Assembly: GCA_963786955.1 (NCBI GenBank)
Contig: CAWBAT010000003.1
Coordinates: 192,001 to 256,000, forward strand
Direction of reading: 5' to 3'
DNA length: 64,000 nt
From: an uncultured Acidimicrobiia bacterium
GTDB taxonomy: Bacteria > Acidobacteriota > Terriglobia > Versatilivoradales > Versatilivoraceae
The notes under the pieces were generated by a model that made no database searches, was not told the DNA's origin, and saw nothing but the letters and a program-made list of their open reading frames with translations. Positions 26,306 to 63,385 of the stretch are shown in pieces. The translations under genes were made by a program, and so were the position numbers. Numbering within the stretch: position 1 is the stretch's first letter; each line of letters opens with the position of its first letter.

Positions 26306-26372
26306 CCCCGCAGATGACGCAGATTCCGCAAGAAAACCATTTGACGGAGAATCGGCGCCATCTGTGGGTGAA
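26306..26372 (+). repeat. CGCAGAT-family repeat copy
   Basis: CCCCGCAGATGACGCAGATTCCGCA...ATCGGCGCCATCTGTGGG, homologous to copies at 34278, 36016, 36167, 36729 and 36901. Confidence 0.75.
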
Positions 26373-26453
26373 TAGTTTTCTTAGTGGTTAAACGATTGGG
26401 GGGTTATCACTAGTGCCTTGACTTAGCTCTAGATCCGTTCAACTGCTATGGCC

Positions 26454-34238: not shown

Positions 34239-34277
34239 GGCACACGACTGTGATCACATGGGCTGTCCCATTTCTTT

Positions 34278-34400
34278 CCCACAGATGGACGCAGATTTCA
34301 CAGATGATTTCTCGACGATAATGGGCGGCAACCGGAGGCTAATGGTTTTCTGAGCGGTTAAAGGATCGGAAGATAGTTAGTGCGTGCCTTGACTCAGCCG
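34278..34400 (+). repeat. CGCAGAT-family repeat copy with extended tail
   Basis: CCCACAGATGGACGCAGATTTCACAGAT...ATGGTTTTCTGAGCGGTTA, matching 36729-36850. Confidence 0.75.
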
Positions 34401-35372: not shown

Positions 35373-35487
35373 TGGTGTTGATAAGAAATCGCTTTTCAGG
35401 CGGCACGGGCACCCGCCCGTTCAGACGGGCTGAAACAACGCTTTCATGGGGAAGAGTGTGCCATGGGGTGCGTGACGAAGGCAAGCG

Positions 35488-35820
35488 ATGAAGGCAAACG
35501 TCCCCTGCGGGCCGGGTCTGCCCGCAGGGGACGTGATCGAGTCTGGAACTGGCAGCGAGGAACCGATCAAGGCTCGACTACTGTTCGAGCCCAAACGGGC
35601 CGTCTACATCACCGACCGCTCGTGGCACCCGACGCAGGAATTCCGGACGCGTTCGGATGGCCGGATCGAGATGAGCTTGCAGAGAACGGGGCGCAAGGAA
35701 CTGGTGCGGTGGGTCTGGTCCTGGATGCCCGACAGGAAGGTGTTGGCTCCCAAGAGCCTGCGGGATCGGATCATGGAGAAGCTTCGGGATGGACTACGGG
35801 CACAGCAAGAAGGAGAATGA
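35488..35820 (+). pseudogene. Isolated C-terminal (WCX) part of a WYL-domain regulator
   Basis: YITDRSWHPTQ...DGRIEMSL...ELVRWVWSW...VLAPKSLRDRI; no HTH or WYL core upstream. Confidence 0.7.
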
Positions 35821-35844
35821 CTGCCCAAACACACGCTGTTCACC

Positions 35845-35999
35845 TAGCGGGACTTCCTGAAAAAATGGGATACTACAATGGTGGAATTCCAAGGCCAGCG
35901 CTTCTTGTTAACCGGCCTCAAGAAAGCCACACCCCATTTCCTTGTGGACTTCCATGGCGGCGCCAATGATGGAATAGGTCTGGGCGTCCTTTTCCATAC
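35845..35999 (-). repeat. 155-bp direct duplicate of 36557-36711 (5' part of the GxxExxY gene)
   Basis: TAGCGGGACTTCC...CTTTTCCATAC appears identical at both loci. Confidence 0.92.
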
Positions 36000-36009
36000 G
36001 TATTCTCAA

Positions 36010-36300
36010 ACCTTCCCCCGCAGATGACGCAGATTTCACAGATAATTTCGGGGCGAACAGGGGTGGAATCTGTCGCCTGATGGTTTTAGGTATGGTCTTG
36101 ACAAAACCTCCAACCTGATGGAATGAGTGTGAGAATCTTTATCGTTACCTATTGCCGATGCTTCTTCCCGCAGATGGCGCAGATTTCACAGCTAATTTCT
36201 CGGCGAACATCGGCGAAATCTGTGGGCTATTAATCTTCTTAATGGTTCTATGATAGGAAGTTTCTTAATACGTTTCGTGAATCAGCCCTGAATTTCTTTG
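36010..36300 (+). repeat. Two tandem CGCAGAT-family palindromic units (~150-bp period)
   Basis: CCCGCAGATG(A/G)CGCAGATTTCACAG...GAAATCTGT at ~36016 and ~36167. Confidence 0.8.
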
Positions 36301-36307
36301 CAAGAAG

Positions 36308-36709
36308 TTATGCCTGAGAATTTGCTCTAGTCTTTTTGGGTATAGTCAGGATGAGACGTTCATATTGCAAGTTTGGGCTGCCAAAATTGAGCAGGAGAGC
36401 TCGAGAATATCCCGTGGCGTTCAAATAGTTGATGACCTGTGCCCTATGAGAATCGATGAGTGTTTCAACGGCCTTGAGCTCCACCAGGACTGAATCAAAA
36501 CAGACAAAGTCTGCCTTGTATAAACATCCCAATAATTGGTTTTTGTAGAGTATCTTTAGCGGGACTTCCTGAAAAAATGGGATACTACAATGGTGGAATT
36601 CCAAGGCCAGCGCTTCTTGTTAACCGGCCTCAAGAAAGCCACACCCCATTTCCTTGTGGACTTCCATGGCGGCGCCAATGATGGAATAGGTCTGGGCGTC
36701 CTTTTCCAT
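36308..36709 (-). pseudogene. GxxExxY protein (PD-(D/E)XK-like) with in-frame TAA at the motif tyrosine
   Basis: [37 protein letters not shown]...YKADFV...VELKA...AQVINYL...LLLNFG; stop at 36620-36622. Confidence 0.88.
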
Positions 36710-36721
36710 ACATGTTCCCAA

Positions 36722-36962
36722 AGCTTCTCCCGCAGATGACGCAGATTTCACAGATGGCTTCTGGGTGGCAATCGGCGAAATCTGTGGGCTGATGGTTTTC
36801 TGAGCGGTTAGACGATAGAAAGTTTTTGAATGCGTTTCTTGAGTCAGTCGGATGTTCTATTGCGAACAGTCTTTTTCTTTACGTATTCCGAAAGCTTCTT
36901 CCCGCAGATGACGCAGATTTCACAGATGGCTTCTCGGTGGCAATCGGCGAAATCTGTGCGTG
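36722..36962 (+). repeat. Two tandem CGCAGAT-family palindromic units upstream of GxxExxY
   Basis: CCCGCAGATGACGCAGATTTCACAGATGGCTTCT..GTGGCAATCGGCGAAATCTGTG at 36729 and 36901. Confidence 0.85.
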
Positions 36963-46611: not shown

Positions 46612-47215
46612 CTCTCGCCAAGGCGCGAAGGACGCCAAGAAAGGATTAAAACGGATAGGTTAGATTATTGTAGACGCATCTGTTTTAGTTTTGCTCAGAA
46701 TAAAGCCCGCGGGTGTTGCATACAATAAACTGTTGTGTACAGGCTCGGGGACGGAGAGGGAGAAAACCCATTGGATCTTTGCGCTCTTGGCGTCTTGGCG
46801 AGATGGCGTTACCTTTCATTTTGTTCAATCTGTGATATTCCAGCCGGAAGGAATCTGAAGCCAAATGGGCTGAAGATTGGGAATTTAGCAGCGCTTGCGC
46901 GGCGCGATGGTGCTCTGGGAGCGCGGGCATCTTGCCCGCAGACGTTACCGAAAATAGAGGTTTCTCTCGCCAAGGCGCATAAGGACGCCAAGATAAGGAT
47001 TAGAACGGATAGGTTAAATTGTTGTAGATGCATCTGTTTTAGTTTTGCTCAGAATGAAGCCTGCGGGTGTTGCATACAATAAACTGTGTACAGACTCGGG
47101 GACGGATAGGGAGAGAACCCATTGGATCTTTGCGCTCTTGGCGTCTTGGCGAGATGGCGTTACCTTTCATTTTGTTCAATCTGTGATATTTCCAGCCGGA
47201 AGGATTCTGGAGCCA
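46612..47215 (+). mobile_element. Two ~250-bp direct copies of a MITE/REPIN-like unit with CGCCAAG-family terminal inverted repeats
   Basis: Units 46612-46863 and 46964-47215; each begins CTCTCGCCAAGGCGC..AAGGACGCCAAGA and has the inverted TCTTTGCGCTCTTGGCGTCTTGGCGAGA ~190 bp downstream. Confidence 0.8.
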
Positions 47216-48745: not shown

Positions 48746-48921
48746 TCTCGCCAAGGCGCAGAGACCGCCAAGCAAGAACAGGATGAAGATCAGATTCATT
48801 GGGTCCTCTTGGAAAAAGGTTTAGTATACCTATAGAGAAATTAATTAATAGATGGAATTGCCCCGATCGTCAGCTGGTTGTCGATGAGTACCAGGGCCTT
48901 TGCGCTCTTGGCGGCTTGAGA
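48746..48921 (+). mobile_element. Degenerate CGCCAAG-family MITE-like unit
   Basis: TCTCGCCAAGGCGCAGAGACCGCCAAG ... CTTTGCGCTCTTGGCGGCTTGAGA inverted pair. Confidence 0.6.
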
Positions 48922-52744: not shown

Positions 52745-53345
52745 TTGTTGTAGCCGGGGTCGTTGACCCCGGGCCTAAATAGCGGGGCCAGCTACAATAC
52801 GGACTCCTGCAAGTAAGTGCTAGTATATACCAAACCGAGATGAGAAGGTAATCTGGGACCGCGGGCATCCTGCCCGCAGTCAATGAAAGATAACCACGGG
52901 AGACACGGGGCTTTTCACTTGCAAAAGTAGAATAACCGCAGATAAACGCAGATTAATACATGGAAAATGAGAAATGAGCGATGAACAATTGGAAATGGGG
53001 CAATTGCGGCAAGGGGGGCGGCGGTCCAAAGCAAGGGGTGAAGAAATTGAGAGCTCCGTAGGGAACGGACGCTGTTCCGTTCCTTTGTAGAGTGTTGAAA
53101 CCATTGGAATTTAGTGCTCCTTGGAAACAAGGAACGCACCAGCGAGCGTTCCCTACAACTAGTTCCACAATTTTTTCATGCCTTTCCCCATCTGAGATCA
53201 ATTATTGCGGCCTGAACCCTCGCCTCGCCCCCAAACAAAAATTGTTATGCGTTAGTTGTCGGGGGAATTTCTGGTAGGGCGCGCTCGCCGAGCGCGCCGC
53301 GGACGGCCCGGCGGTCCGTCCCTACCCACTCAGCCGCTACAAAAG
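52745..53345. repeat. Mosaic of different REP-like palindromes
   Basis: GTAGCCGGGGTCGTTGACCCCGG; GGGACCGCGGGCATCCTGCCCGC; ACCGCAGATAAACGCAGAT; GTAGGGAACGGACGCTGTTCCGTTCC with inverted GGAACGCACCAGCGAGCGTTCCCTAC; GTAGGGCGCGCTCGCCGAGCGCGCC; GGACGGCCCGGCGGTCCGTCCCTAC. Confidence 0.75.
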
Positions 53346-57849: not shown

Positions 57850-58463
57850 GTCATCTTCTGCAGGGATTCTCTCGCCAAGGCGCTAAGGACGCCAAGACAA
57901 GTGAAAGAATCACTCGCCAAGGCGCGAGGGACGCAAAGAATGGGTTAGGGCGAAATAAGTCATATTGTTTTGTATTTAAACACATCAGTGAATCACGAGT
58001 TTGAAACGGATTTGTGTGAGACGGCTTATTTAGTAACGATTTAATGATTAGGACAGCACAATATAATTGCCAACGGCCTTACAGAAATCCCAAATATTAC
58101 TTTGCGCACTTGGCGTCTTGCGAGAGTAGAGAATGCTCTCGACAAGACGTAATGGAGCGCCAAGACAAGTGAAGGAATCTCTCGCCAAGACGCAGAGGAC
58201 GCCAAGAATAGATGAGAACCCGAAACGTAGCGTCTGATTGCAAACACCGAAGTTTCAGTAAACAAAACTCTTGGGTCTCGACAGTTGGAATGCGTGTGTG
58301 AGGCAATACAGCTTGGGAACTGCGAGAGGCGGAATTGGAGTTCGAGAGGCAACACTCTACCCAACTCGACGAACGCCTTATACGAAATCGATAAGGTCTT
58401 TGCGCACTTTGCGTCTTAGCGAGAGTAGAAAACGTTCTCGCCAAGGCGCAGAGGACGCCAAGA

Positions 58464-58720: not shown

Positions 58721-58933
58721 TCCAAGCTATCAGAGGATCGTGACCAAGCCCTGGCCTTGGATGTTTGAAAAGGAGTGAGCAGGAAAAAAATGGGAACCCT
58801 GACCGGGTGTCATTCGCCGCTGAGGACAGCGGCTCCCACAATGAGGAGTTTCCATTAAAATCTTTAATAGGGTGCCTGAGATTGTGAAACCTAGTGAAGG
58901 AATCTCTCGCCAAGGCGCTAAGGACGCAAAGAC

Positions 58934-59323
58934 CTATTCTCTTTCGGCGAGGCCGTTGACGATTCGGAAAATGCCATCCTTCATCTGTGCTTCCCCGAAG
59001 TTCAGCAAATAGCCCAGCTTCATGCCCGTGAGCTTTAAATAAGTAAGCAGTTGTTTCTTGTGGGCATTATTGATCGCCTCGATGGACTTCAACTCCAGAA
59101 TTACCTTCCCTTCGACGACGATGTCAGCTCTGAATCCCTCGTCAAACCTGAATCCACCGTACTCAATGGGAATGGGGATTTGTCGCTCAACCGTCAACCC
59201 TCGTTCTCGCAGTTCCTTCGCCAAAACAACCTCGTACACTGTCTCCAACAATCCTGGCCCAATTCCTCGGTGTACCGCAATGGCTGTGTCCACAACAATC
59301 CGACCTATCTGGTTCTCATCCAT
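58934..59323 (-). CDS. GxxExxY protein (PD-(D/E)XK-like nuclease fold), intact
   Basis: GPGLLETVYE, GFRADIVVEGKVILELKS, KQLLTYLKLT...GYLLNFG. Confidence 0.95.
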   Translation of the reverse strand: MDENQIGRIVVDTAIAVHRGIGPGLLETVYEVVLAKELRERGLTVERQIPIPIEYGGFRFDEGFRADIVVEGKVILELKSIEAINNAHKKQLLTYLKLTGMKLGYLLNFGEAQMKDGIFRIVNGLAERE

Positions 59324-59628
59324 ACTTGGCATCCATTACGTCTTATTGAGACCGGTCTCTACTCTCGCCAAGACGCCAAGTGCGCAAAGTGATCTATGGG
59401 ATTTCTGCAAGGCCGTTGGCAATTAATATTGTGCCGTCCTTGAATAATTAAATCGTGACCAAATAAACCGTCTCAGATAAATTCGGTTCAAGCTCGTGAT
59501 TCACTGATATGTTTGTATACACAACTATATCACCTATTTCGCCCTAACTCATTCTTTGCGTCCTTTGCGTCTTAGCGAGAAAAGGCTTCAATATTCTGTA
59601 TCGGGAAGGGACCCGACTGTATAAGAGC

Positions 59629-63127: not shown

Positions 63128-63385
63128 CGGGTAATGGTTATGTCCAGAACTCAGTGTGATTGATTCCTATTCCTGCCGACCTAATTGGAGGCTGGAGGGG
63201 ATCAACGATACACTCGCGCTCACATTATCGCCCATTCCAAGACCAACCGTGGAAGACCGAAACGCCAAGGACGCGAAGCGCGCCAAGGAAAATATGGATG
63301 CAACTGAAGACTCACGGGTGGTAAGAGAATCGTACCGGGGTACTGTGCCTAGCATCAGCACGACGGTCTTCGTGGGTAATGGGGT

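Follow-up and report, generated by a model that had tools for sequence, protein, structure and literature searches.

The stretch of DNA analysed here (the window, 64 kb, numbered from its first nucleotide) contains, at 35845-36962, a decaying tandem array of four units, each of which, read in the orientation of the gene, begins with a tail and a hairpin, continues with a leader and ends with a gene of the GxxExxY family (PF13366, PDDEXK_3). We consider it probable that this array is a decayed and now dead member of a widespread selfish system of gene-repeat cassettes, and that its repeat unit, the heptanucleotide CRCAGAT, is the DNA partner of the branch of GxxExxY proteins to which the gene in the window belongs. 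What is new here, and can be tested, is that the repeat unit beside the GxxExxY gene is specific to the clade and, judged by sequence comparison, is kept under selection. In what follows, G000 denotes the source genome (5.65 Mb), C numbers contigs, L numbers loci, and the other G numbers the genomes of relatives.

Anatomy of the decayed array

A divergent GxxExxY gene had been proposed at 36308-36709 in the initial annotation, and its family membership is confirmed: the minus strand translation, with a stop codon read through, matches PF13366 with an E-value of 9.6e-38 (129.6 bits, profile positions 3-116 of 117) and passes the curated cut-off of 22 bits. Because an in-frame TAA (36620-36622) occupies the Y codon of the GxxExxY motif (GFLEAG*QEA in the window vs. 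GFLEAVYQEA in relatives), this gene proved to be a pseudogene, i.e., a member of the family by descent, although D...ExK is still encoded (D...ELK in the translation). The segment 35845-36087 is a duplicate, at 92% identity, of 36557-36799, and therefore the fragment at 35845-35997 (minus strand; approximately the first 50 codons, PF13366 positions 3-48) is a second gene start with the same TAA (35908-35910); its end at 35845 is cut against the remnant of a WCX-domain gene (35488-35820). Altogether, the four units of the array comprise one full dead gene, one gene cut to its first ~50 codons, and two units from which the gene is deleted.

The same annotation had described two imperfect palindromes of ~65 bp on each side of the gene, with dispersed copies near 26306 and 34278 and a half copy near 52936, and all of these are real. 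Around the gene, there are four hairpins of ~62 bp (e1 to e4) whose words occur far above chance: CGCAGATTTCACAG, with at most 2 mismatches, has 6 matches against 0.54 expected (6 was reached in 0 of 100 shuffles), and the word of the right arm has 9 against 0.73. The periodic CGC-containing subrepeat of ~9-10 bp that had been noticed in these palindromes is also upheld, in the form of CRCAGAT repeated with a period of 9 bp in the left arms, which carry 2 or 3 units, and of two reversed units in the right arms.

On the plus strand, e1 (~36016-36080), with left-arm units at 36019, 36028 and 36037 and a decayed right arm, is followed by a spacer (36081-36165) that consists of a tail-like part and a decayed gene-start remnant, i.e., a unit with the gene deleted. 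The next hairpin, e2 (~36166-36227), has left-arm units at 36169 and 36178 and the right arm ATCGGCGAAATCTGTG (36209-36224); behind it lies a tail segment of ~65-80 nt (36228-36307), common to the repeat copies including the solo ones, which is located downstream of the pseudogene and, in the orientation of the gene, upstream of the next hairpin. The third hairpin, e3 (~36728-36789; units at 36731, 36740 and 36749, right arm at 36771-36786), lies on the upstream side of the pseudogene, ~20 nt from its ATG, and precedes a tail and a decayed gene-start remnant (36790-36899) that represent the second unit with a deleted gene, with 36870-36958 being 82% identical to 36136-36224. Finally, e4 (~36900-36960), the outer end of the array, adjoins the stop codon of a Rho_N-like gene. 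The repeat unit is ~130 nt, hairpin plus ~65-nt tail, and the order at each hairpin on the plus strand is the same, namely, gene start or its decayed remnant, hairpin, and then the shared tail. A promoter function of this tail was considered and dropped on reading of the sequence, the spacing of the hexamers being unsuitable.

Of the copies outside the array, the one at 26306-26430 is gene-less and has an intact hairpin and tail. Another gene-less copy (34277-34400), located just after the enolase gene, retains an intact left arm and the tail, and its right arm is decayed; the half arm at 52935-52953 (plus strand) consists of two units, CGCAGAT at 52937 and 52947, with a period of 10 bp. A blastn-short search with the four hairpins detected the family at six places only in the 5.65-Mb genome, all in the window region, so that the CRCAGAT family, unlike the CGCMAAG and CRCAAAG classes, is not a genome-wide repeat in G000; a looser seed of two CRCAGAT units yields nine sites in the genome, six of them in the window.

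The history of the locus can be traced in close relatives. In G002, a genome of the same genus, the flanking genes are collinear (86-92% identity), ~58 bp are found in place of window positions 35558-36908, and these are followed by one hairpin orthologous to e4, the only part of the array with an orthologue in this genome; the gene-less copy after the enolase gene has a partial orthologue there as well. In G001, the enolase gene is separated by 120 bp from the Rho_N-like gene, without a hairpin. The hairpin shared with G002 is therefore older than the split between G000 and G002. As for the gene-bearing array, there was either a collapse in G002 or an expansion in G000, and the WCX remnant, being truncated further in G002, appears to favour a deletion in that genome.

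Repeat units and GxxExxY clades

In G000, PF13366 has 20 matches, of which 12 are long and open, 2 are long with a stop codon, and 6 are fragments, several of these adjoining a full copy. At all of the long loci (14 of 14), the gene is enclosed by inverted arms built from short direct units, which vary from clade to clade (e.g., CACGGAG, CACAAAG, CGCGAAT, CGCCAAG, CACGGGG and CGCAAAA). Seeds of two units of the general form CRC-N4 number 387 in this genome, compared to 213 in the reversed sequence, and most of the seed sites are gene-less. Among the leading classes, AAAG is found 32 times vs. 1 in the control, AAAA 28 vs. 0, and GGGG 22 vs. 0; the two motif families for which a genome-wide count had been proposed at the outset, CAAG and AGAT, are found 32 vs. 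0 and 14 vs. 0 times, respectively. The contrast between these two families within the window was also borne out: there is no CGCMAAG match between 33782 and 42363, and no CRCAGAT array at the gene 58934-59332, where a single lone CACAGAT is found, within the gene. The latter gene, an intact GxxExxY gene, is part of a locus (58908-59389, minus strand) with inverted CGCMAAG arrays at 58908-58931 and 59366-59389 and a further foldback arm at 59554-59569.

The pairing of clade and unit extends far beyond this genome. Within the same class, the proteins from other genera and families that are closest to the window protein (L010-L013 and L015-L017, 49-58% identity) are all flanked by CRCAGAT arrays, whereas slightly more distant proteins are flanked by CGCGAAA, CACGAAG or CGCGAAT; among the same-class relatives, at least 3 CRCAGAT units are present at 8 of 104 loci, those with the most similar proteins. 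A clade-directed scan of one genome per species (185,579 species) produced 607 candidate stretches and 589 relatives, and the best 80 of the 589, which are 54-66% identical to the query, were used; they come from Chloroflexota, Verrucomicrobiota, Planctomycetota, Acidobacteriota, Bacteroidota, Desulfobacterota, Nitrospirota, Gammaproteobacteria and others. At least 3 exact CRCAGAT units within ~170 nt of the gene were found at 68 of these 80 loci and in 6 of 75 distal windows. Loci from all sources were combined in a set of 200 (14 from G000, 28 from same-class relatives, 80 from the clade scan and 78 further ones; L034, L186 and L194, at contig ends, were dropped). Inverted periodic arrays, defined as at least 2 units on each side of the gene with a spacing of 8-11, are present at 147 of the 200 loci, compared to 12 of 178 distal control windows. 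This measure replaced an earlier statistic, any 6-mer found at least 3 times in the flanks, which did not discriminate (200 of 200 loci vs. 123 of 126 controls).

The presence of at least 3 CRCAGAT units follows the identity to the window protein, with 66 of 80 loci at 50% identity or more, 8 of 15 at 45-50%, 2 of 29 at 40-45%, and 0 of 71 below 40%. In a FastTree phylogeny of 196 GxxExxY proteins (rows shorter than 95 aa were excluded), on which 116 loci were labelled with 16 CRC-N4 classes, the unit label changes 22 times, in contrast to a mean of 47.8 (range 44-49) for 200 shuffles of the labels. A random distribution of the repeat class over the phylogeny, the outcome that the initial annotation had regarded as fatal to its proposal, is thus clearly at odds with the tree, every shuffle requiring at least 44 changes. 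Its claim that each nuclease clade has its own repeat is supported by both the identity bins and the tree; that the protein also recognizes the repeat is what we infer. A small number of changes on a tree is expected from kinship alone and, therefore, this count is a measure of non-randomness, not of co-evolution.

The unit itself is under purifying selection. When 66 open CRCAGAT-class genes are compared, identity at four-fold degenerate sites is 0.28-0.31 against 0.27 expected by chance (pairs with 50-70% protein identity), whereas in comparisons between loci, the positions of the unit are 0.84-1.00 identical, spacers only 0.27-0.47, and conservation ends abruptly outside the terminal ATCC, at the outer end of the arm. 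It is this coexistence of saturated neutral sites with a unit that is 84-100% identical that points to selection. Other clades within the same genomes keep a different unit. The GxxExxY protein is the likeliest reader because the cassette encodes no other clade-specific factor, and it would then read the unit of its own clade.

Several features of the arrays could be taken to mean that they act in RNA, as a long stem around the open reading frame (ORF) that is involved in RNase III processing or in the stability or regulation of the mRNA, in the manner of 23S rRNA intervening sequences. The layout resembles that of the ORF-bearing rRNA intervening sequences, the ends of the ORF often run into the arms, and, when the six hairpin copies of the window were folded as DNA, three folded better than shuffled sequences (those at 36727, z -3.2; 36165, z -2.1; and 26305, z -4.9); of the remaining ones, the copy at 36899 was marginal (z -1.3), and those at 36015 and 34276, in which the right arms are decayed, had z ~0 (0.0 for both). 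We nevertheless regard a role in RNA as very unlikely, given that a specific 7-mer is conserved rather than pairing. Comparison of the two arms of the same locus, at 134 loci, revealed 383 mismatches over 2998 positions; 203 of the mismatches are transversions, and the arm changes that are compatible with G:U pairing show no strand bias (87 sense vs. 93 antisense), so that the constraint on the arms does not look like that on an RNA stem, as far as can be judged from these comparisons. Furthermore, gene-less hairpins are dispersed, and the gene is not always enclosed: it lies inside a foldback, with the outer TCC ends facing away, at 100 of the 116 labelled loci, but outside, between two complete foldbacks, at the other 16, among them the window, L010, L011, L043, L049, L065, L067, L083 and L095, several of which group with the window protein on the tree. 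No Rfam match at the gathering thresholds and no tRNA were detected in the 64-kb window, and the neighbours of the pseudogene are protein-coding genes rather than rRNA genes.

The protein, mobility and the proposed mechanism

Residues E26, D66, E76 and K78 (in the numbering of L010) are conserved at 96-100% among the 196 proteins, and so are G21, G23, Y29, Q90 and N107. The structural model of L010 (46-row alignment; mean predicted local distance difference test score, pLDDT, 93.7) adopts the PD-(D/E)XK fold, with the topology of two helices, a three-strand meander, a helix and two strands. Its matches in the Protein Data Bank (PDB) are generic PD-(D/E)XK nucleases (Cas4 SSO0001, 3ijm, BpuSI, AF1548, TT1808 and Hjc), without a specific relative: the best Foldseek hit is Cas4 SSO0001 (E 4.7e-05), and the VIA-align Z-scores are at most 7.8 (3ijm, BpuSI and AF1548). 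A sequence search of the PDB with the intact paralogue from the window gave 0 matches at E up to 1. PF13366 is the only Pfam match of the sole ORF of the cassette, which has no match to any transposase family. Prediction of a homodimer of a protein of this clade (2 copies, alignment A2) scored 0.00 against a mark of 0.42 and speaks neither way. The positions that discriminate between unit classes cluster at ~60-62, 97-102 and 109-112, which, being confounded by phylogeny, can serve only as a lead. Judging from the conserved residues and the model, the enzyme looks functional across the GxxExxY family, and the window copy is dead.

Evidence of mobility comes from a CGCCAAG-class element of ~0.65 kb in G000, which is present in 4 full copies with 81-100% identity (C5:795237-795893, C4:154750-155406, C6:452380-453084 and C8:196387-196996) and 5 internally deleted ones (C4:533579-533988, C7:47237-47638, C8:332732-333274, C6:874021-874348 and C6:1065566-1065873). 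Two pairs of gene-less copies, C6:874021 with C6:1065566 and C4:533579 with C7:47237, have identical breakpoints. Since these shared breakpoints are found at four different loci, the deleted forms were copied after the deletion and, accordingly, mobilized in trans. The element carries a GxxExxY gene and long terminal inverted repeats, and its flanks beyond the conserved ends are themselves palindromic, in a variable form (GCTGTAGC...TCAAC), so that either the terminal repeat is longer than its conserved part or the insertion site is a palindrome of its own.

With respect to the CRCAGAT class, the number of two-unit seeds varies from 0 to 225 among 61 related genomes, compared to 0-2 per strand in the control. 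G057 and G029 are congeners, and the position just upstream of purB that is occupied by the L012 cassette in G029 has, in G057, the same arms around an unrelated 95-nt interior, without the gene; short arrays of still different units are present in this interior. Foldbacks are commonly nested or arranged in tandem (L065 and L095), and tandem genes ~450-485 bp apart are found in G003, G016 and G055, a pattern that suggests that such elements insert into, or next to, one another. The genome with 225 seeds, G025, which belongs to the same class, has two subfamilies, CGCAGAT with a 10-bp and CACAGAT with a 9-bp period (e.g., C6:150183-150252); most of these seeds are short gene-less hairpins, and the gene flanked by CACAGAT (L015) has an in-frame stop.

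Certain sites recur among the CRCAGAT cassettes and foldbacks: directly upstream of purB (L012 of G029, L052, and L200 at G057:C2:304010-304170; the hosts are a planctomycete-class relative and a Terriglobia metagenome-assembled genome), in the gap between gltB and gltD of several Verrucomicrobia (L040, L041, L051, L061 and L083), upstream of ahcY (L048, L062 and L099), and just after a tRNA gene (L016, L017, L068 and L104). Cassettes found at the same site in related genomes, as at gltB/gltD and purB, could alternatively be viewed as immobile repeats that function as operators, through which a domesticated DNA-binding protein autoregulates its gene or serves the host, and the conserved catalytic residues would fit a maintained function. 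This alternative is highly improbable in our assessment: arrays flank the gene on either side and are also present at many sites without a gene, multi-copy families share deletion breakpoints at different loci, congeners differ in the presence or absence of the cassette, and pseudogenes are frequent.

Returning to the selfish cassette, we propose the following mechanism. Arms made of 2 or 3 CRCAGAT copies, spaced by one helical turn and ending outward in (A)TCC/CCC, would serve as the conserved DNA partner of this GxxExxY branch throughout bacteria; in the other branches, the constant CRC is combined with a different 4-base word (CAAG, GAAG, AGAG, GAAT, GGGG and others). Several protomers of the nuclease would bind the unit array of their own cassette, and a nick or cut that they make in the arms, or in a hairpin that is extruded, would result in copying or movement of the cassette and of gene-less hairpins with the same arms. 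The route could be homing-like repair templated on the shared arms, or transposition. Binding of the unit, its cleavage and the mode of movement are all inferences.

A broader hypothesis, which we offer as tentative, is that the GxxExxY family is a library of small sequence-reading nucleases, with one protomer per CRC-N4 unit and three per arm, and that, together with cassettes encoding four-helix-bundle proteins, it makes up a widespread type of self-recognizing hairpin cassettes whose homing targets are the gene-less hairpins of the respective class. The constant CRC would be the signature of the family, whereas the 4-base word would be set by a few surface residues, for which the three clusters of discriminating positions are the candidates.

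A number of observations weigh against the cassette system as we propose it. At the window locus, the system is dead: the gene is a pseudogene, and nothing acts there now. Each unit class corresponds to about one or a few evolutionary events, so that independent contrasts cannot establish co-evolution. Fewer than 3 exact units are present at 12 of the 80 clade loci, and one of the loci, L116 (54% identity), has a different unit; the AGAT label is also found outside the main clade (L150 and L031), and the 22 label changes exceed the minimum of 15. CRCAGAT arrays are found in genomes where the query used detects no gene of the clade (12 in G045, 12 in G049 and 8 in G051). Co-occurrence of arrays and clade genes over the 61 genomes turned out to be unusable as a test, owing to several spacing subfamilies and to similar units in other clades. 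At variable positions, the arms are more alike within than between cassettes (0.65 vs. 0.38), which would also fit a pure hairpin requirement; the unit spacing is equal in both arms at 34 of 41 loci. From the within-cassette likeness it follows that either the arms are homogenized or complementarity matters at the DNA level. A target-site duplication was not evident at the inspected element ends, although no systematic test was made. Finally, the layout is not exclusive to nucleases because genes of the PF05635 four-helix-bundle family (10 matches in G000) have the same inverted periodic arrays with other units, including AAGGTCGA and GAGATGCGA.

Under another explanation, the arrays are cis elements moved by host recombination at hairpins or by an unlinked recombinase, and the GxxExxY gene, which might encode an addiction or defence nuclease, is cargo. 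The pairing of clade and unit would then result from long co-inheritance, combined with selection on the arms that is unrelated to the encoded protein. The layout shared with the four-helix-bundle genes, the persistence of arrays in genomes without a detected cognate gene, the different interior between identical arms in G057, and the co-variation of the arms of one cassette are all in line with this possibility. Nevertheless, we consider it rather doubtful since the unit is fixed at 84-100% within the clade over many phyla, with saturated synonymous sites, and yet differs between clades that share a genome, the GxxExxY protein being the only clade-specific factor in the cassette.

Known systems and further observations

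The closest parallel to the selfish cassette system is that of repetitive extragenic palindromic (REP) doublets (REPINs) and REP-associated tyrosine transposases (RAYTs). As reported (PMC3116915; PMC3337134), this system also combines a small nuclease-type gene, flanked by its own palindromic repeats, with dispersed gene-less hairpins, has gene clades with distinct repeat families, and shows long persistence with partly vertical inheritance. The same combination of own flanking palindromes and gene-less copies is found in the window (the four hairpins and the solo copies at 26306 and 34278) and, for the other classes, genome-wide. RAYT is an HUH/Y1 (IS200/IS605-like) transposase and is associated with a single REP, whereas the GxxExxY protein has the PD-(D/E)XK fold and matches PF13366 only, and its arms consist of 2-4 direct 7-mers with an 8-11-bp spacing; in further contrast, the GxxExxY gene is inside the foldback at 100 of 116 loci and is often multi-copy (20 PF13366 matches in G000).

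Insertion sequences with their miniature inverted-repeat transposable elements share with the GxxExxY cassettes the terminal inverted repeats (147 of 200 loci), the deleted gene-less derivatives with shared breakpoints, and the copy number that varies between genomes. The differences are that the sole gene of the cassette encodes a PD-(D/E)XK protein of ~125 aa, of no known transposase family, and that the ends are periodic arrays of units. The 23S rRNA intervening sequences and the PF05635 cassettes have a small ORF enclosed by inverted periodic arrays of short units, too, but encode a helical bundle rather than a nuclease fold; the units described here are CRC-N4, and the GxxExxY element is not in rRNA.

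Homing endonucleases of the PD-(D/E)XK fold exist, one of them being I-Ssp6803I. By analogy, the GxxExxY protein would be a small enzyme that propagates the selfish element in which it is encoded, and copying into sites with flanking homology, as proposed above, would be homing-like. Homing would involve site-specific cleavage of an empty target and copying of the gene into it, for which the evidence is indirect: identical arms are present at orthologous sites that differ in having or lacking the gene, between the window and G002 and between G029 and G057. Unlike that of homing endonucleases, the gene is not in an intron or intein; the presumed target, a repeat array or hairpin, is also what borders the gene, and the structural matches are generic.

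In a 2012 superfamily survey, the function of PF13366 is given as unknown (PMC3424549), and incidental mentions of GxxExxY are found in a study of a reverse transcriptase neighbourhood (10.1101/2021.01.26.428298) and in an algal virus gene list (PMC12085832). A literature search by family names returned such incidental mentions only and no description of GxxExxY hairpin cassettes. PF13366 is a very large family that is represented in many bacterial phyla, and the clade-specific unit makes possible a cheap test of its function, with cognate against non-cognate arrays. If correct, the proposed system would account for a class of hairpin repeats that are scattered over genomes of Planctomycetes, Verrucomicrobia, Acidobacteria, Bacteroidota and other phyla, and would be a second gene-repeat symbiosis, independent of REPIN-RAYT. 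Should the 4-base word be read by a few residues, the protein might offer a compact, re-targetable scaffold for DNA recognition.

Some further repeats of G000 deserve mention. Genes of PF05635, the family of 23S rRNA intervening-sequence proteins, are located at C8:452434, C6:465990, C5:11892, C4:382427, C3:167545, C8:340644, C6:737248 and C6:456835, bracketed by inverted arrays of 8-9-bp units that are unlike those of GxxExxY and differ between paralogues. At C5:249034-249360, consecutive half-arms of several classes (CGCAAAG, CGCGAAT and CACGGGG) are found without a nuclease gene. In the window, clusters of CGCMAAG on both strands, forming gene-less foldbacks, are located at 46616-47151, 48749-48913, 57873-58462 and 63263-63287. 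The stretch 35379-35559 (~180 bp), which overlaps the start of the truncated WCX-domain ORF, is a dispersed repeat as well, with copies of 84-90% identity at C3:329259, C2:81, C3:68100 and C5:1743717 of G000, and several more in G002.

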